Assembly: GCF_000026545.1 (NCBI RefSeq)
Contig: NC_011601.1
DNA length: 64,000 bases
Reading direction: 5' to 3' (one strand)
Origin: Escherichia coli O127:H6 str. E2348/69
Lineage (GTDB): Bacteria > Pseudomonadota > Gammaproteobacteria > Enterobacterales > Enterobacteriaceae
The translations under genes were made by a program, and so were the position numbers. A model generated the notes under the pieces. It saw only the letters and a program-made list of their open reading frames with translations, made no database searches and was not told where the DNA came from. This document shows, piece by piece, positions 2,223-64,000 of the stretch (its first letter is position 1; each line of letters starts with the position of its first letter).

Positions 2223-3023
<801 letters not shown>

Positions 3024-3075
3024 GGCTTAACCGGTGGCAGGTTCACCGGTTTACTGATTTTTGAAGATGATAGCC

Positions 3076-3774
3076 ATGCAAAAAAACGCTGCGCATACTT
3101 ATGCCATTTCCAGCTTGTTGGTGCTTTCACTAACCGGCTGCGCCTGGATACCCTCCACGCCGCTGGTACAAGGGGCGACCAGTGCACAACCGGTTCCCGG
3201 TCCGACGCCCGTCGCCAACGGGTCTATTTTCCAGTCTGCTCAGCCGATTAACTATGGCTATCAACCGCTGTTTGAAGATCGTCGACCACGCAATATTGGC
3301 GATACGCTGACTATCGTGTTGCAGGAGAACGTCAGCGCCAGCAAAAGCTCCTCTGCGAATGCCAGCCGTGACGGTAAAACTAATTTTGGCTTTGATACTG
3401 TGCCGCGCTATTTGCAGGGGGTGTTTGGTAACGCTCGTGCCGATGTCGAAGCCTCCGGTGGTAACACGTTCAACGGAAAAGGCGGGGCCAATGCCAGCAA
3501 TACCTTTAGCGGTACGTTGACGGTGACGGTTGACCAGGTACTGGTCAACGGCAACCTGCATGTGGTGGGTGAAAAACAGATCGCTATTAATCAGGGTACC
3601 GAATTTATTCGCTTCTCTGGCGTGGTTAATCCACGCACTATCAGCGGCAGCAATACCGTACCATCTACTCAGGTGGCGGATGCGCGCATTGAATACGTAG
3701 GCAATGGCTACATTAACGAAGCGCAAAATATGGGCTGGTTGCAGCGTTTCTTCCTTAACCTGTCGCCAATGTAA
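3076..3774 (+). CDS. flgH: flagellar L-ring lipoprotein FlgH
   Basis: ORF 3061-3774; start set at internal Met (MQKNAAHTY...) to give the expected 232 aa; lipobox LTGC. Confidence 0.9.
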
Positions 3775-9510: not shown

Positions 9511-12500
9511 TTACTCAACAGGTTGCGGACGCGCAGGAGCGGCAGAGGCATGATGCGTTGCCGTATGACCACCTGCGGCACCTTTGCCTTCGAAGGCAAA
9601 AGTAGGGCGCTGCCAGTCACTGTGACGCGGTGCCTCCGGAACATATTCCGGTGCCGGAGCGCGCGTCATTGGCGCGGTAGCGTGGTTATGCTCAACGGTG
9701 ATCTCTGGTTCAACCGCGGCTACCGTTTCAACTTCTGCTGCGACTTCAGCGACGACTGGCGCGGCAGGTTGAGCAACAACTTCAGGTTCAGCAACCACAA
9801 CCTCAGCAGTTTCGGCAACTTCTTCAATATCTGCCGTCTCTTCCTGCGGTTCAACTACCGGTTCTGCGTGTTCTGCAACTTCCTGGGCTACGGCAACATC
9901 AGACTCGGTAATCACCTGCGGCTGTTCAGTTACCGCGGCGGCAATTACTACAGGATGCGTCGTTTCAACCACTTCCGGTTGCGGTTCGGCAATCTGAACG
10001 GGGGCTTCTACGACTTCAGCCACTTCTTCAACAACTGGCGCGCTAACAACCGGTTCGACAGCGGCGGCGACAGGGACCTCAGTCACCATCGGCTGCACTT
10101 GTACTTCTTCCTGTTCGCGCTGCTCTTCGACCTGTACATCTTGCGGACGTACAATTGGATAGCGGATCCAGACTTTGCCAGAGGCCAGTTCCGGAGATGC
10201 GCAAGCTACGGTCAACGGCATTGGCGATTGGGTTGGATAACGCTCGTCACGATAGCGACGACGACGCTGACCACTCACGCGCAGGTGACGAGGCGAGCGG
10301 CGAGAACGACGCGGCATGCCACCGTTGTCACGGTTATCGGCATTGTTCTCTTCTTGCTGTTCTGGTGCAGCTTGCGCTACGACTGGCAGCGGGACTTTCA
10401 CCAGTTCTGTGCGTGGAGCTGGCGCTTCCTGAACAATTGGTTCGGCAGCGACAGTTTCTTCAACCACCGGTGCGACTACCGCTTCTTCGGCTACGCTTTG
10501 CTCGTAACGCACTTTCTGATTGAGCTGACGCTGTTTACGACGCGGCTGAACCGGACGTACACGTTCTTCCTGTTCGGTTTCCTGAACAGATTGCTCTTCA
10601 ACATTCAGCGCCTTCGCTTCTTGTTGCGCCTGACGTTTATCATCGTTACGGCGGCGGCTACGTTCACGACGCGGCGCTTGCTGCTCGTCGGTGGTACGCG
10701 CTTTTTCCGTTACCTCAGCCTGCTGACGGCTCTCACGCGTCTCGACAGTCTGCTGCTGTGCCTGGCGACGATTACGACGGTTTTCTTCGCGATTATCGCT
10801 GCCTTCTGTACGTTCACTACGGGAGTCGCGGCGCTCATTACGGTCACGGCGGTTGTTCTGACGAGGCTTGCGACGATCCTGTTGACGTTCCGGTTTCGCT
10901 TCTGCTTTCGGTGCTGGTTGCTCGGCCGGTTTGGTTTCTTCACCACCGCTGAACAGCGCTTTCAGTGCGCCGAAGAAGCGGCTCAACAACCCTGGTTGTG
11001 CAGGAGATGCTGGTGTTGCCGTTGCAGCTTTAGGTGCTGGGGCTACAACAGGCGCGGCAGGTTCAGCTGGGGTTGGAGCTGGCGGCACATCCGGCATGGC
11101 AAAGGTTGCCAGCGCAGGTTGTTCCGGACGCTTACGTTCAGCGAACTCTTCTTCAGACGGCAGCGCCATCGCTTCTTCATGCAGCTTCGGCAGCATGTAG
11201 CTTAAGGTTGGAGTTTCTTCCCCTTTACGCACGCGCAGCACATGGTAGTGCGGGGTTTCCATCTGATCGTTTGGCACAATCACACAGCGCACGCCGTCCT
11301 GACGAGTTTCAATCGCATTCACTGCAGAACGTTTTTCATTCAGCAGGTAAGACGCGATTGGCACAGGAACAATGGCGTGAACTTCCTGAGTGTTCTCTTT
11401 CAGCGCTTCTTCTTCGATCAGACGCAGAATAGAGAGCGACAACGATTCGTTGTCACGCACGGTACCGGTACCGGAGCAGCGCGGGCAGACGTGATGGCTG
11501 GATTCACCCAGTGATGGGCTCAGACGCTGACGGGACATTTCCAGCAGGCCAAAGCGAGAAATATGGCTGATTTGAATACGCGCACGGTCCTGACGCACCG
11601 CTTCACGCAGACGATTTTCTACCGCACGCTGGTGGCGTACTGGCGTCATGTCGATGAAGTCGATAACAATCAGGCCGCCGAGGTCACGCAGGCGCAGCTG
11701 ACGAGCAATCTCATCGGCAGCTTCGAGGTTGGTGTTAAACGCGGTTTCTTCGATATCGCCGCCGCGGGTCGCGCGTGCGGAGTTGATGTCGATGGCGGTT
11801 AACGCTTCGGTGCTGTCGATAACAATGGAACCACCAGATGGCAGACGAACTTCACGCTGGAAGGCGGACTCAATCTGTGACTCAATCTGGTAGTGGCTGA
11901 ACAGCGGGATCTCGCCGGTGTACAGTTTGATTTTGCTGCTGAAATCCGGGCGACCTAATGCAGCGATATGCTGGCGTGCCAGTTCGAGCACTTTCGGGTT
12001 ATCGATAAGGATTTCGCCGATATCCTGACGTAAGTAATCGCGGAATGCGCGAACGATGACGTTGCTCTCCTGATGAATCAGGAACGGAGCTGGGCGGCTT
12101 TCAGCGGCTTTTTTGATGGCTTCCCAGTGTTTCAGACGGAAGCTTAAATCCCATTGCAGCGCCTCAGCAGATTTGCCGACGCCAGCGGTGCGCACGATAA
12201 GCCCCATGCCTTCCGGCAGTTCAAGGCTTGCCAGTGCTTCTTTTAATTCGGTACGGTCGTCGCCTTCGATACGACGAGAAATGCCACCCGCGCGCGGGTT
12301 GTTCGGCATCAGAACCAGATAGCTACCCGCCAGACTGATAAAGGTGGTTAATGCCGCGCCTTTGTTGCCGCGCTCTTCTTTATCGATCTGAACAATGACT
12401 TCCTGACCTTCACGCAACACATCTTTAATGTTGGGACGACCATGAGCACTGTAGTTAGCAGGGAAATATTCGCGGGCAATTTCTTTTAGTGGGAGGAAAC

Positions 12501-12696
12501 CGTGACGTTCAGCGCCGTAATCAACAAAAGCAGCTTCCAGACTCGGTTCAATGCGGGTGATTTTACCTTTGTAGATGTTTGCCTTTTTCTGCTCGTGCCC
12601 TGGACTTTCGATATCCAGGTCATACAGACGCTGCCCATCTACAAGGGCAACGCGCAACTCTTCCTGCTGAGTTGCGTTGATTAACATTCTTTTCAT
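9511..12696 (-). CDS. rne: ribonuclease E
   Basis: 1061-aa ORF; N-terminal S1/catalytic region ([30 protein letters not shown]...) and Arg/Pro/Glu-rich low-complexity C-terminal scaffold. Confidence 0.95.
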
Positions 12697-13057
12697 CGTA
12701 ACTTACTCATTATTCTTACATTGACGACTAAGCTGCGGGCAAAGTAACGCCTTTCCGGGTGTGAACCGATGGCCTCGTGTCTAGTCGCGTCGCCAACCTC
12801 ACGGTTATCGTCAGCTCAAAGAGGCGCAGAGTGTCGGTTGCCCGTTTTTCATGCGGAAAAACAGCGCAATTATCAAAGAAACAGACTGGGTATTACTCTC
12901 CAGAAATATTTCCATCTACCGGTAAGGACTGCAACCCGCAGCCCGCTAACTGCCTGAAAGATCAATACGTCTTACACCATTGCTGCGTGGATGATCGGTC
13001 GGGCAAAATGGGTTATTCCGTAAAATTTCTTGTTTTAACAAGGATGGACACGGAAAC
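12697..13057 (-). promoter_or_regulatory. rne 5' untranslated leader (autoregulatory)
   Basis: Long non-coding stretch upstream of the rne start; a leader of about 360 nt is known for rne; exact 5' end not determinable from sequence. Confidence 0.45.
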
Positions 13058-13151
13058 GGCCTCATTATTCCACTGCAAGCCTTGTTATAGCAAGATGACT
13101 TTTACCATTTATCACCCGCTTACTCACAGTTTTTTCACTTCTTGCTGGTGA
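12831..13151 (+). CDS. yceQ: small ORF overlapping the rne leader (YceQ-like; doubtful gene)
   Basis: ORF 12777-13151; 106-aa version from GTG at 12831; no convincing RBS or domain. Confidence 0.25.
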
Positions 13152-13268
13152 TTGGTTTAATAACCATCAATAAAGTGATCACGTAGTGAAGTAATAAGGT
13201 GCAAAACTAAATATAAGCATAGAAAAATGAGTGGCGCGAATCCTGTTGGCTAATTAGAATCGCCCACC

Positions 13269-60526: not shown

Positions 60527-60801
60527 ATGGAGACTGTTTTTGACGCACTGAAAGCAATGGGAAAAGCCACATCCATAGAACTTGCTGCGCGCGTGAAGAA
60601 GTGCTGAACGAACTATGGGAACTGAAAAAGGCTGGTTTTGTTGATAAAAGCGCGTACACCTGGCGTGTGGCTGATAACAACGTTCAGCAGGAACAGCCAG
60701 CGCAGGCAGAACTGCCGGAAGAAACCACCACAATGAGTGAAGTTATGCAGCGCATACTGGCATTTTATCAGGGAAATGTTCGATATTTTAGACGTTACTA
60801 G
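60527..60801 (+). pseudogene. small prophage gene split by a frameshift
   Basis: [26 protein letters not shown] then stop at about 60605; the reading frame continues after a 1-nt shift as ...[25 protein letters not shown]...RYFRRY (60601-60801). Confidence 0.45.
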
Positions 60802-61240
60802 ATTAAAGAGCATTAGTTCAGATGTGAATTGACATTGTGTGGCACAGGGTTGGGCTAGCGTGGGGGTTTGCTTTGTGTAAGAAACGGATGCTCTGCAAAT
60901 TACTACTAATGCTTAATGTTAGTCTGATCTGCTCCCCGATGATTAATACACCGCTATGTTAGTAATGTCTGTAGATCGCTGTGTGTTGCATCCATCGGTT
61001 GACCCCACAGTCCAAACCAGACTGTCAGCTTTGATTCGATTCTATCTACTCAACCTGTCAGGTAATGTCTGAGCTAATACACAGAGTACGGCTATCGCGA
61101 ACTTTAAGCTAGGTATCTGATACGCACCGTTCACTTGGTCGTACTTCTTGCACTGACTAGCTATCGTGCGCAGTTATTTATAGGTAATCTCCAGTGTATA
61201 ATTTTCCAACTTATGGGAGATTGTAAAACAGGAGGAATAT

Positions 61241-62083
61241 ATGAGGAAAAAATCGTTTGGACGTTGCCCGTTTGATTTCGACGAAGATGTAAAAAAAATA
61301 GCCGCGATAAATAAATATATCCATGCGAAATTTGAGAGGCATAAAAATAAAATAGATAACCTAAAGGGGGTGGAACAAAAATTGATGGTTTTACATTACT
61401 TTAATGTACTGAATGAACTTAGTAATCAGGCTATATTTTCTTTGAGTACCGGAGCCTTTTCAGCATCGGAAGTATTAACTAGAGTTATAATGGAACAGGC
61501 TGCCAATCAATTTTATATAGCAATTGATGATGGAAAAAATGCACAAGCATTACTCAAGGGTAGTAAGAAATTAGTTCATAGTAATGGGAAACGGTGGCTG
61601 GAGTGTTTAAAATCCAAAGAAATGACTAATCCAGCAGCAGATGAAAGGATTCGTATCGGAAAAGAGCTAACTGATATGTTTAATAGATTGTGGCCAAATA
61701 CACCTGAATATCCTGGAACCAAAAAGCTTTTCGAAGTAATTGGCTGGGAAACACACTATCATGCCTATTACGTCCCTCTTTGTGATTCAATACATACATT
61801 CTCTGATGATATGGCAAATATAGTATCTCTATATAATGCAATCCAAAGCGATAAAACTACTGCTATCGAACTCACTCTTGCAGTTAAACAAGAAAATAAA
61901 CGGCTGGCAATTTATAATGTCGTAATTGCTATTGGCCTGCGGTGTGAGGCCTTAGTAAATGTATTTAACTCTTTAGGTTATCGAGATATTATAACTGAAA
62001 TGGCGCCAACAATAGATGCAGTCAACCAGATTATAATTCGATATGATGATTTCGAACATTCCAGAATTTTTTATTGTCAATAA
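61241..62083 (+). CDS. hypothetical protein, AT-rich cargo gene (predicted mostly alpha-helical; function unknown)
   Basis: 280-aa ORF with AGGAGG SD 7 nt upstream and TATAAT -10 at about 61196; Lys/Ile/Asn-rich codon usage unlike the flanking prophage backbone. Confidence 0.7.
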   Translation: MRKKSFGRCPFDFDEDVKKIAAINKYIHAKFERHKNKIDNLKGVEQKLMVLHYFNVLNELSNQAIFSLSTGAFSASEVLTRVIMEQAANQFYIAIDDGKNAQALLKGSKKLVHSNGKRWLECLKSKEMTNPAADERIRIGKELTDMFNRLWPNTPEYPGTKKLFEVIGWETHYHAYYVPLCDSIHTFSDDMANIVSLYNAIQSDKTTAIELTLAVKQENKRLAIYNVVIAIGLRCEALVNVFNSLGYRDIITEMAPTIDAVNQIIIRYDDFEHSRIFYCQ

Positions 62084-62140
62084 TTAATTGGCAGAATTCG
62101 TACATGCACAACAACTAGTTATAGTTGACCTATTTCGCTC

Positions 62141-62709
62141 TTGAGAGACAACCATACTCAAATCTTCCACATTGCAGGAGATTTGAGTATGAATACGTCA
62201 CCGAGGAACAAAGACAGTATCATAGGCCCAAAAAGACCACTTCAGATATCTCATATCTGGGGGCTCCAAATCCGGCTTGAACTGGAAGGTAAAACGCGTG
62301 ATTTAGCTCGGTTTCAAGCAGAGCTACGGTGCTGCAACTGAAAAACTGGCAGTCCTATCCAATTTGAGATAACCAAAGGGACAAGAGAAGCTGTTTCTGC
62401 ATTGATAAAGCTTGGCAATTTACGCAGTAAAGACTACTTGTTCCGATCTCGGGTCGGTACTAACCAACACATATCAATCCTGCAATATAACCGAATCTTT
62501 CATAGGAGGGAGAAAAGCTTGGTCTCGAAGATTCGCTTTACAGCACACATTCCATGAGAAGAACAAAACCTTGCCTTGTCTGCAAGAAAACTAAGAATCT
62601 CCGGGTGATCCAACTTCCGTTGGGCCATAAGAAAACGGAAAGCACAGTTCGTTATCTGGGTATAGAAGTTGATGATGCATTAGAGATCTCTGAATCGATC
62701 GAAGTCTAA
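62141..62709 (+). pseudogene. decayed tyrosine recombinase (integrase-family) gene
   Basis: Recombinase segments spread over three frames: ...KRPLQISHIWGLQIRLELEGKTRDLARFQAELRCC / FEITKGTREAVSALIKLGNLRSKDYLF / SMRRTKPCLVCKKTKNLRVIQLPLGHKKTESTVRYLGIEVDDALEISESIEV (HxxR...Y catalytic tail). Confidence 0.6.
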
Positions 62710-62715
62710 AGCTGT

Positions 62716-62737
62716 CAGGGCTGCAGCAGCAGCCCTG
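62716..62737. repeat. perfect hairpin (9-bp stem, 4-nt loop) immediately after the recombinase relic
   Basis: cagggctgc-agca-gcagccctg; no U-tract follows, so not a canonical terminator. Confidence 0.5.
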
Positions 62738-63121
62738 TGCCAAGAGCGTACCAATATATGTCTCAAAAAATTGGGCACAGGTCAATATCAATACCAACAA
62801 CTCTGATTGTGCTCATGTGATTTACTCCTGTAGAAAACGCAGACAGTAAAAATATTTCACTGGCTGCTTCAGACAGGGCGTCCATCATATCATTACATAA
62901 CAATAGCGGGGCACGATATCTAGACATGCAGCAACGATGGACATAGAATGAGTACAATCAAAAGCATGTTTAACTACTTTAATTTAAAAATCTTAGAATC
63001 TTAGGTGTAGAGTTCAATACTTAGTTACATACCCTTTTGAAAGCATCACAAATCATAACTATGAGCCTGTTAAAGGCATAGGTATTCTTAATTAAGAGCA
63101 TTTTAATGAGAGAAAAATAAA

Positions 63122-64000
63122 ATGAAAAGACTATATTATACCCATCATGATAGTCGAACCTTAAAACTTGCTATAGAAGGTGATGTTTCTGATAATGCGA
63201 ATATTTTTACAGTAATTGTAGGTAAAAATGGCGTTGGAAAAAGCAGATTGTTATCTCAGATTGCTAAAGACTGTATTCAAGATATTCATTTCTTGAAAAC
63301 TTTTAATCCATTATTTGACAGAGAAATAACACCAAAGTTAATTGCCGTATCTACCAGCCCATTCGATAAATTCCCTCCAGGGCGTAGGTCATTAAATCAC
63401 CAAAGGAAAGAAAATAATTATCGCTATGTGGGTATGCGTGGAGAAGGCCCCTTCGGCGTATCAAATGCCGTATCCCTTTTATCTTCAGCAGCGAGAGGTT
63501 GGCTAGAGAAACTTGCTTATTCAGAAAATCCTGCAAATTTACTCGATGTTTTTCATTCTATTGATTTTGAGCCCCATATAGAGTTTGTATTTAAACCAAC
63601 TTACAACGGACCGGACACTCCTGACTATAACTTCATTGGTGTATATTCAGATGAGATATTAACGGAAGTTAAGGAGTTATATTTAAAATACAATATAAAA
63701 ATTGACAGGAAGAATATTGAGAGTCTCTTAAAGTTAAACTCCGAATCACGTCATGATATTTACGAAGCACTGGTTGAAATTAATCGATTTGAACCTGAAC
63801 GTAGGGCTGTAACCTTGTCAGTCGATTTTACCAATGGTGAAACATTGGTTGGCTCGACTTATGCGAATAATTATTTTTCTAGATCAATTCTTAAACTTAT
63901 GAACGCTGGCTTCATGAGATTGATGGATATGCGACTCATAAAAAAAAGCTATGGTCCCATGTCACTTAAACGTGCGAGCTCGGGAGAACAATGTTTATTA
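63122..64000 (+). CDS. ABC-type (AAA_15/AAA_21/OLD-like) ATPase, N-terminal 293 codons; runs off the window end
   Basis: Open frame from the ATG at 63122 with no stop to 64000 (absent from the ORF track for that reason); Walker A VIVGKNGVGKSRLL near residue 33; ABC-signature-like SSGEQ at the last codons; AT-rich. Confidence 0.7.
   Translation, partial: MKRLYYTHHDSRTLKLAIEGDVSDNANIFTVIVGKNGVGKSRLLSQIAKDCIQDIHFLKTFNPLFDREITPKLIAVSTSPFDKFPPGRRSLNHQRKENNYRYVGMRGEGPFGVSNAVSLLSSAARGWLEKLAYSENPANLLDVFHSIDFEPHIEFVFKPTYNGPDTPDYNFIGVYSDEILTEVKELYLKYNIKIDRKNIESLLKLNSESRHDIYEALVEINRFEPERRAVTLSVDFTNGETLVGSTYANNYFSRSILKLMNAGFMRLMDMRLIKKSYGPMSLKRASSGEQCLL

Follow-up and report, generated by a model that had tools for sequence, protein, structure and literature searches.

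A decayed tyrosine-recombinase gene in an Escherichia coli prophage and the putative gene-cassette arrays to which it points

A broken recombinase gene and its intact relatives

The chromosome of Escherichia coli E2348/69 carries a Rac/Qin-like lambdoid prophage (dicB, ydfABC, DicC, YdaT, and O/P-like replication genes) in which recombinase-like segments, spread over three frames (62141-62709), lie between two accessory genes, one for a DUF5677 protein and one for the ATPase PtuA. All coordinates given here refer to the 64,000-nt stretch of this chromosome that was analysed as a whole (hereafter the window), and all features described lie on its plus strand. The locus raises the question of what this recombinase once did in the midst of accessory genes and whether it had any part in bringing them there. 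An earlier note, made from the sequence alone, had taken the gene to be decayed, had suggested that the cargo was delivered by a small integrative element, and had considered a perfect 9-bp hairpin directly after the relic as a possible former recombination site.

The relic (62189..62709) starts with an ATG at 62189, ends with a stop codon at 62707-62709 and carries the tail LGHKKTESTVRYLGIEVDDALEISESIEV, i.e., both the segments in three frames and the catalytic tail that had been described are present in the sequence. The feature is already known as an annotated pseudogene in RefSeq, where PGAP labels it 'tyrosine-type recombinase/integrase; frameshifted; internal stop'. Mapping the frameshifts against homologues, as the note had suggested, located three indels by alignment to five relatives (four intact, and the copy at locus L016 with one internal stop): an 82-bp deletion after 62304, the insertion of a single T at 62339 and the loss of a single base after 62510. 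Two copies of TAGCTCTGTT border the deletion, an arrangement that points to slippage; codons ~39-66 were lost with it, among them that of the box-I Arg51. Private substitutions occupy 29 of 659 alignment columns. Once the three indels are repaired, the gene reads colinearly over 200 codons, and 154 of the 172 comparable residues (90%) are those of the intact protein WP_001305361.1, with four residues that are invariant in the family changed (W6R, Q14P, Y159C, and L171P). With Arg51 deleted and the frame broken by three frameshifts, the window copy lacks a complete catalytic R-K-H-R-H-Y set. The same 701 bp recur as a single aligned piece, at 98.1-99.9% identity, in 17 other complete E. coli genomes, and the same 518-bp form of the relic is found in about a dozen IMG/VR prophage contigs; lesions shared in this way exclude a sequencing error, which the note had named as a possible undoing of its claim. 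A megablast search found no further copy of the gene in E2348/69, and the separate arm-domain integrase of the prophage is located elsewhere in it.

The intact homologue is a protein of 200 aa that consists of the catalytic domain only (PF00589, E 5.3e-19, 69.1 bits against a cut-off of 27.1, residues 35-184), and this match, the PGAP label, the indel alignment and the repaired reading together bear out the claim of a decayed tyrosine-recombinase gene. Among intact members R51, K79, R151, H174, and Y183 are invariant and H148 nearly so. The AlphaFold model of the intact protein (mean pLDDT 83.6) was matched best by Foldseek to XerA (5hxy, E 5e-8, TMq 0.7), with XerH, Cre, Tn1549 Int, and VchIntIA next in rank, and its identity to the catalytic domains of XerA, XerH, Cre, and IntI is 15-20%; a sequence search of the PDB gave no match, and none of the curated family cut-offs for Xer, Fim-type invertase or integron integrase was reached. 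The family is large and widespread, with at least 8000 protein clusters at E < 1e-10, identities of 80-90% across gammaproteobacterial genera, and at least 378 loci in one-genome-per-species contigs of Gamma-, Beta-, and Alphaproteobacteria. Among 5426 complete E. coli genomes about 900 carry it, as do several hundred or more other proteobacterial species, and it occurs also on sixty viral contigs and many plasmids.

Sites at the module edges and the movement of cassettes

Alignment of ten E. coli loci delimited a conserved int module of ~710 bp that begins 55 bp before the ATG and ends about 45 bp after the stop codon. Its edges are sharp and identical in at least six unrelated left flanks and at least seven unrelated right flanks, and both are built like the core sites of tyrosine recombinases, with two arms of ~10 bp around a 7-bp spacer. 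The module is conserved as far as the spacers; in the outer arms beyond them conservation is only partial. The upstream site, B', consists of the outer arm AATGTCCGTTCC, the spacer TCGCTCA, and the inner arm TAAGGGACAACC, and the downstream site, A', of the inner arm GCAGCAGCCC, the spacer TGTGCCA, and the outer arm GAAGCGGACRTT. Full palindromic sites of 28 bp are found at the far ends of the neighboring cargo, with the consensus GTCCGCTC-TGTGCCA-GGAGCGGAC for A and GTCCGCTCC-TCGCTCA-GAGCGGAC for B; B approximates the reverse complement of A, and in E. coli the two spacers differ at 2 of 7 positions. In scans with position weight matrices (PWM) real sites score 30-43 bits, against a background in which shuffles of the window give 0-3 hits of at least 10 bits, mostly below 15 and one of 22.5.

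These scans revealed arrays of the pattern A-cargo-B-13 nt-A-cargo-B'-int-A'-cargo-B in CP4-type islands (L002, L003, and L016), in two kinds of lambdoid prophage (L004 and L013), in the Z/fun hotspot of P2-like prophages (L101 and L102), on a resistance plasmid (L014), in Enterobacter, Pseudocitrobacter, and Brenneria (L021-L024), and in IMG/VR contigs; in Acerihabitans (L025) only the two int-proximal sites are left. Nearly all sites that score at least 20 bits (62 of 64) share the strand of int. The composite B-linker-A junction has matches in 1484 of the 5426 complete E. coli genomes, and the 30 matches that were sampled all lie outside annotated features. There are cassettes on either side of int, with one to five genes each on either strand, and they are highly diverse: 39 of 43 A-to-B segments are distinct, and most encode unannotated proteins. 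Six of ten cassette proteins match known defense families in PADLOC (PD-T7-1, Old, Septu, bSEFIR, and an Aga-type REase), e.g., PD-T7-1 adjoins the intact int in the sister prophage L013, and outside Enterobacterales the cargo comprises mostly regulators, oxidoreductases, and transporters.

Movement of cassettes can be followed directly in two comparisons. In the first, a cassette of 1147 bp is the same from site to site in two arrays (L013:3869-5015 and L016:5852-6998, 99.2% identity over all 1147 bp), being second from int in a lambdoid prophage and adjoining int in a CP4-type island, and the int genes of these two loci differ by 8%. The cassette has kept the right arm of A and the left arm of B, and the partner arms differ, which is what a crossover in the 7-bp spacer would leave behind. 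In the second, the strain JJ1886 has a single A site made up of the left arm of A8434 of L003, the spacer TGTGCCA, and the right arm of A12702 of L003; between these two direct A sites L003 holds about 4.27 kb with a 366-aa gene, int, and genes for 245 aa and 269 aa, a block that is found also in a lambdoid prophage at 99.8% identity. The comparison of empty and occupied states places the crossover within 15 bp common to both A sites, the spacer included, a resolution that leaves formal room for another enzyme or for short-homology events. Some arrays, that of JJ1886 among them, have no int in cis, and this counts against a reading as recombinase-driven cassette arrays.

The anatomy of these loci, the positions of the sites, the identity of cassettes across arrays and the empty/occupied polymorphism of the A site are direct observations. 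On their basis we think it likely that the exchange is catalysed by the 200-aa Int, which would act between inverted core-type sites, B' upstream and A' downstream, that enclose this catalytic-domain-only enzyme in the intact array. Each cargo unit would carry a full palindromic A site on its left and a B site on its right, with B-13 nt-A joining consecutive cassettes, so that recombination of A with A or of B with B could excise or insert one or several cassettes at a time. The excision product would be a circle of cargo with one composite junction, and the two different spacers would keep the inverted A and B sites orthogonal.

Could the same anatomy belong to a Fim-like DNA invertase that flips segments between inverted sites and so produces phase-variable expression of defense genes rather than exchange of cassettes? 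The enzyme resembles FimB/FimE in size and in its catalytic-domain-only build, and A and B are mutually inverted versions of each other with cargo genes on either strand; in Pseudomonas-type clades the two spacers are even exact reverse complements, and there is a weak NCBIfam match to a tyrosine-type DNA invertase (25.5 bits). That score falls far short of the 222 bits set as the family cut-off, in E. coli the spacers of A and B are mismatched at the two positions mentioned, and the polymorphisms seen are insertion/deletion and cassette transposition, not inversion. Moreover, every cassette common to several loci has the same orientation in all of them (a 314-aa c0 cassette in three, PD-T7-1 in two, a 288-aa cassette in two, and a 366-aa cassette in five, a small sample), and we hold an invertase to be unlikely.

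A second alternative sees in the int module a tiny mobile element with terminal inverted repeats that enters defense islands, the A and B palindromes being unrelated terminators or sites of a host recombinase (XerCD). Sharp module edges on both sides with inverted terminal sites would fit such an element, A and B sites fold into stable hairpins and are intergenic, and some arrays have no int. Against it, the outer arms beside int share their motif with the arms of the distal sites and travel with the cassettes, the spacer types alternate regularly with almost all sites co-oriented with int, and the sites have no T-tract and appear unlike E. coli dif. Sites also decay together with int: the relic-type loci sampled (the window, L131, L138, and L142) are all without intact sites, and L016, where int has a single recent stop, keeps them. 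This joint decay links the sites to the enzyme, and the tiny-element account appears to us very improbable.

The third alternative takes up the suggestion of the earlier note, a small integrative element. A mini-island or IME of the ordinary kind would have integrated once with the DUF5677 gene, the Septu genes or both, and then decayed, and the hairpin would be a terminator or a former att site. A decayed gene of the integrase family between two accessory genes in the accessory region of a prophage would fit this account, and in L004 and L102 the whole A...B array does act as one inserted block. The protein of 200 aa, however, has neither an arm-binding nor a core-binding domain, the position of the gene is central in the variable region and not at its edge, the cargo on each side of it changes independently at fixed sites, and no direct-repeat pair of the attL/attR type surrounds the region. 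We therefore judge a classical element improbable. What stands of the proposal is that the DUF5677 gene and the ATPase gene (ptuA) are recombinase-associated cargo; what does not is the vehicle, in place of which we see an array of independently exchangeable cassettes.

The layout of the proposed cassette arrays extends well beyond the enteric bacteria. The order of left site, hairpin over the Shine-Dalgarno sequence, open reading frame, hairpin, and right site is kept across Gamma-, Beta-, and Alphaproteobacteria (60-70 loci), with sequences that are clade-specific. When each sequence is folded on its own, 55 of 67 family loci have the Shine-Dalgarno sequence paired within a 5'-UTR hairpin, the sequence of which differs from that in the window; RNAalifold found no consensus structure in a MAFFT alignment of 36 5'-UTRs, the stems being out of register in the alignment. 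The hairpin after the stop codon is strong, with a median of -24 kcal/mol and, at 46 of the 72 loci, z < -2. In distant clades the left site is, e.g., GYCCGCTT-TGGGTCG-GTTAGCGACC, and in the right site the inner arm is supplied by the 3' arm of the hairpin and followed by a spacer of the CGGCCAG- or CGACCCA-type and the outer arm AAGCGGMC. The half-site CGGCCAGAAGCGGMC has 93 matches with up to 3 mismatches in 19 non-enteric loci, against 16 in shuffles, and is frequently present as inverted pairs with a distance of about 42 bp. A simple regular expression for E. coli-type sites was tried on GC-rich non-enteric loci and discarded as unspecific (20 observed against 12.7 expected).

The window as a candidate dead array

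Measured against intact arrays, the window retains the remains of three sites. The type-B site upstream of the relic (B', 62122..62153), at the spacer of which six unrelated left flanks converge exactly, has the degenerate outer arm TAGTTGACCTATT, the spacer TCGCTCT (62135-62141), and the inner arm TGAGAGACAACC; intact loci have at this place an outer arm such as TGTCCGTTCC. The type-A site downstream (A', 62726..62753) is the sole PWM match of the array in the window and scores 14 bits against 30-43 for intact sites, with the inner arm GCAGCAGCCC, the spacer TGTGCCA (62736-62742), and the degenerate outer arm AGAGCGTAC (62743-62751). A distal type-A site at the left edge of the variable region (60865..60891, GGTTTGCTT-TGTGTAA-GAAACGGATGC) can be aligned with its intact counterpart in the sister prophage L013 (TTGTCCGCTT-TGTGCCA-AGAGCGGACTT); it has suffered a 2-nt deletion and several substitutions and falls below the 12-bit threshold for PWM listing. 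Intact A or B sites are absent from the window even when 3 mismatches are tolerated.

The hairpin after the relic (62716..62737) is perfect, with 9-bp arms and a 4-nt loop (CAGGGCTGC-AGCA-GCAGCCCTG), and there is no T-tract behind it, just as the note had it. It is ruled out as a canonical intrinsic terminator by this missing tract and by a terminator scan that makes no call, and it may nevertheless act as a barrier to transcription. Hairpins after the stop codon are conserved across the family, and the one seen here is thus a constituent of the int-proximal site and not a palindrome that arose by chance. The suggestion that it is a former recombination site holds for one half: the 3' arm is the inner arm of A', and the hairpin as such is not the crossover site; all contexts diverge at the spacer TGTGCCA. 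The 5' arm is an inverted second copy of the int-specific motif, and the whole could be an additional binding element and/or a transcriptional insulator. Of the two further checks that had been suggested, a search of the window for a second copy of the hairpin, with 3 mismatches tolerated, found none (chance expectation 0.03), and a search for flanking repeats returned only the degenerate A-type site at 60865-60891. A second hairpin, read from the sequence as CATACTCAAATCT-N13-AGATTTGAGTATG, covers the Shine-Dalgarno sequence and the ATG (62153..62191) and would presumably throttle the translation of int; an Rfam scan of 60700-63200 gave no match.

Between the distal A site and B' lies the DUF5677 cassette (60924..62121), with a gene at 61241-62083 for a protein of 280 aa (Pfam DUF5677, E 3e-9). 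In P2-like prophages (L101 and L102) the segment recurs at 90% identity in the Z/fun hotspot, where it begins directly behind an A site that is near-intact. In APEC E18006 the cassette adjoins an int of 194 aa, and in IHE3034 the int is truncated. The loss of the B' outer arm is common to the window and the P2-prophage copies and thus predates their 10% divergence. On the other side of the relic, the Septu cassette (62754..64000) has a promoter-like site in its leader (62921-62949, promoter scan) and contains ptuA, which runs from 63122 past the end of the window, with ptuB beyond it; PADLOC identifies the two overlapping genes as a Septu pair (PtuA, E 1.9e-165; PtuB, an HNH nuclease, E 1.1e-83) and has no model for the recombinase or for DUF5677. 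This Septu cassette is seen only together with the relic (18 genomes), so that its delivery as a cassette is argued by analogy, e.g., with a second, different Septu pair that directly follows int in L106. The outer junctions of both cassettes are without recognizable sites, and this counts against the cassette-array reading: 32 nt of unrelated sequence separate the decayed distal A site from the DUF5677 cassette, and no distal B site follows ptuB.

Taken together, the relic is probably the inactivated recombinase gene of a site-specific gene-cassette array, and we favor, with similar confidence, the view that this dead array has left the prophage of E2348/69 with its DUF5677 and Septu genes as stranded cassettes. 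The enzyme would have been killed by the slippage deletion and two frameshifts, all sites would have degenerated, and the cassettes would have become fixed; with every site in the window degenerate, they are to be regarded as frozen. The message for the window itself is modest, and the value of the relic lies in what it points to. In the openly searchable literature (subscription-only papers lay outside this scope), queried also by site sequences and protein accession, we found no description of the recombinase, the sites or the arrays. It is about an even call whether the recombinase family and its A/B sites constitute a previously undescribed platform for capture and exchange of cassettes across Proteobacteria, integron-like and mechanistically distinct, that in Enterobacterales shuffles anti-phage defense genes between lambdoid prophages, the P2-like Z/fun hotspot, CP4-type islands, and plasmids.

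The ways in which defense genes travel from one hotspot to another, in prophages, satellites, and islands, are for the most part unexplained, and homologous recombination between conserved flanks is usually invoked. If the proposal is true, it would supply a concrete mechanism, i.e., a dedicated small recombinase and two orthogonal, inversely oriented sites per cassette, and would explain part of the unexplained variability of 'defense hotspots'. Such a system would be a naturally evolved analogue of recombinase-mediated cassette exchange, its site pair would serve as a simple bait for new defense genes, and it would need to be added to the annotation of mobile elements.

Comparison with known systems

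In function the system is akin to integrons, to the pdif modules of Acinetobacter, and to the rAID arrays of Bacteroidales. By family-level scores, however, the recombinase is neither an integron integrase nor a Fim-type invertase, the cassette ends are not attC sites, and they appear not to be dif-like. Several features are shared with integrons: a tyrosine recombinase stands beside diverse, exchangeable cassettes that bear their own sites, A' is attI-like in having its own inner arm, and excision between like sites would yield the same kind of product, a circle of cargo with a composite junction. Anti-phage genes are likewise abundant in the cargo of chromosomal and mobile integrons (10.1101/2024.07.02.601686; 10.1101/2024.07.02.601719). 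The differences lie in the enzyme, the sites and the layout. The recombinase scores 15.9 bits for integrase_gron (TIGR02249) against a cut-off of 265 and by this score lies outside the IntI family, whose members have a characteristic extra segment in the catalytic domain, and its 200 aa leave no room for a core-binding domain. The sites are near-perfect double-strand palindromes of 28 bp with two inverted spacer types, whereas attC of integrons is an imperfect palindrome of 57-141 bp that recombines as a folded single strand; and the cassettes lie on both sides of int, with genes on either strand and apparently their own promoters, whereas integrons take up mostly promoterless, co-oriented cassettes on one side of intI, at attI.

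In the pdif modules of Acinetobacter, too, cargo lies between inversely oriented core-type sites that are strung along mobile replicons (PMC6449649, PMC5790767). Here as there, modules are bounded by inversely oriented sites, B scoring as a reverse-complemented A and the two alternating. The pdif sites are dif-like, however, and are thought to use the host XerC/XerD, whereas the arrays described here contain a dedicated small recombinase and are hosted by prophages, islands, and plasmids of many Proteobacteria. The A consensus given above bears no evident resemblance to the dif sequence of E. coli.

FimB and FimE share with the recombinase a length of about 200 aa and a build of the catalytic domain only, and they act on short inverted repeats. 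The scores against the Fim-type families fall far below their cut-offs (NF007371, 25.5 bits against 222; NF007370, 18.2 bits against 221), and we found no invertible promoter segment for the recombinase family. Unlike the integrases of phages and ICEs, the protein has no N-terminal DNA-binding domains, and its gene lies inside the variable region.

A recombinase with an array of protective genes, integron-like and yet not an integron, has a counterpart in rAID-1 of Bacteroidales, which Ross and colleagues, in a 2019 study cited in PMC12632615, are said to have reported as a tyrosine recombinase with an array of diverse protective genes and conserved repeats between them, conferring immunity against T6SS toxins. 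Phylum, recombinase family and cargo differ. Another possible relative is Tn6212, the 'XerC transposon' in ICEs of P. syringae, a cargo block headed by a XerC-type gene, bounded by short palindromes or repeats and recently spread between ICEs; neighboring metal-resistance blocks have these repeats at their ends as well (PMC3583860, PMC10945833). Judged by this description, Tn6212 may be related to the recombinase family. None of the ~100 loci examined contains the boundary repeat of Tn6212 (14 bp, AAATACGTTATCAC), and the P. syringae locus L081 is not Tn6212. The sfx sites of the R64 shufflon have a conserved 7-bp spacer, GTGCCAA, with one conserved and one variable arm, and their recombinase Rci, of ~384 aa, only inverts pilV segments. 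In this composition the sfx sites appear to resemble the sites of the A/B arrays, where TGTGCCA(A/G) is joined to the strongly conserved half-site GCCAGAAGCGGMC.

Loss of the recombinase and its probable regulation

Both the Shine-Dalgarno sequence and the ATG of the recombinase gene (int) are paired within the perfect 13-bp inverted repeat CATACTCAAATCT-N13-AGATTTGAGTATG (window 62153-62191), and stems that sequester the Shine-Dalgarno occur in 55 of the 67 members of the recombinase family, even though their sequences are quite different. This 5' hairpin, for which there is no Rfam family, probably acts as a translational brake. The gene itself was inactivated by an 82-bp deletion (window 62296-62311) between two copies, seen in intact genes, of the 10-bp direct repeat TAGCTCTGTT, and such a loss between direct repeats is the signature of replication slippage. 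The distal A site, itself decayed (A being one of the two types of recombination site bounding the cassettes), has TGTGGCACAGGG (window 60838-60849) immediately to its left. This sequence is the reverse complement of the core CCCTGTGCCACA of the int-proximal A site; it is also present in the sister prophage L013 and may be an inverted remnant of the 3' end of an older int. The window prophage is in general decay. The record annotation lists a DUF1627 gene fragment, a ydfD interrupted by a stop codon and, directly 3' of ptuB, an insertion of the IS481 family (annotated decay features at L001 7428-7630, i.e., window 60527-60729, 3012-3203 and 12273-13361).

Intact, empty and hotspot loci

At the locus that holds the relic in the window, the sister prophage of strain AR437 (L013 5085-6998) carries int in intact form, flanked by PD-T7-1, which PADLOC names as a defence gene (E 7e-157). 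An "empty" A site was recovered from JJ1886 (ST131; L103 8990-9040, compared with 8434 and 12702 of the CP4-type island L003), exactly where other strains hold a 4.27-kb insert containing int. A TonB-receptor/Fec-like iron-uptake operon adjoins this empty site, and in L003 the operon is bounded by A and B sites. Arrays were also found in the Z/fun hotspot, between the tail-fibre assembly gene G and the sheath gene FI, of the P2-like prophages of IHE3034 and APEC O1:K1:H7 (L101 7976-9391 and L102 7756-10192, respectively). The latter runs from A to B and comprises the DUF5677 cassette, an int of 194 aa whose C-terminus has been replaced, and a membrane protein of 125 aa; all that is left in IHE3034 is the A site, DUF5677 and an int that breaks off after 153 nt. 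Therefore, a published defence hotspot harbours the int-cassette system.

Recombinases beyond Enterobacterales and possible cassette promoters

Among the loci outside Enterobacterales (L017-L020 and L030-L100), several genomes encode 2-3 recombinase copies (Glaciecola XM2, Hydrogenophaga NFH-34 and MAG ZJ1.bin68). Cargo was inspected in the four plasmid loci (L017-L020), where LysR/AraC regulators predominate, together with oxidoreductases or transporters, but the Photobacterium plasmid (L020) differs in carrying a RES-family gene and a type I R-M system. Pseudomonas-type loci might permit inversion, since the spacers on either side of int are exact reverse complements of each other there.

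The region's best promoter-like site, TAGACA-17-TAGAAT (window 62921-62949, 10/12 matches), falls within the leader of the Septu cassette, which suggests that cassettes bring their own promoters; in this they would be unlike most integron cassettes.
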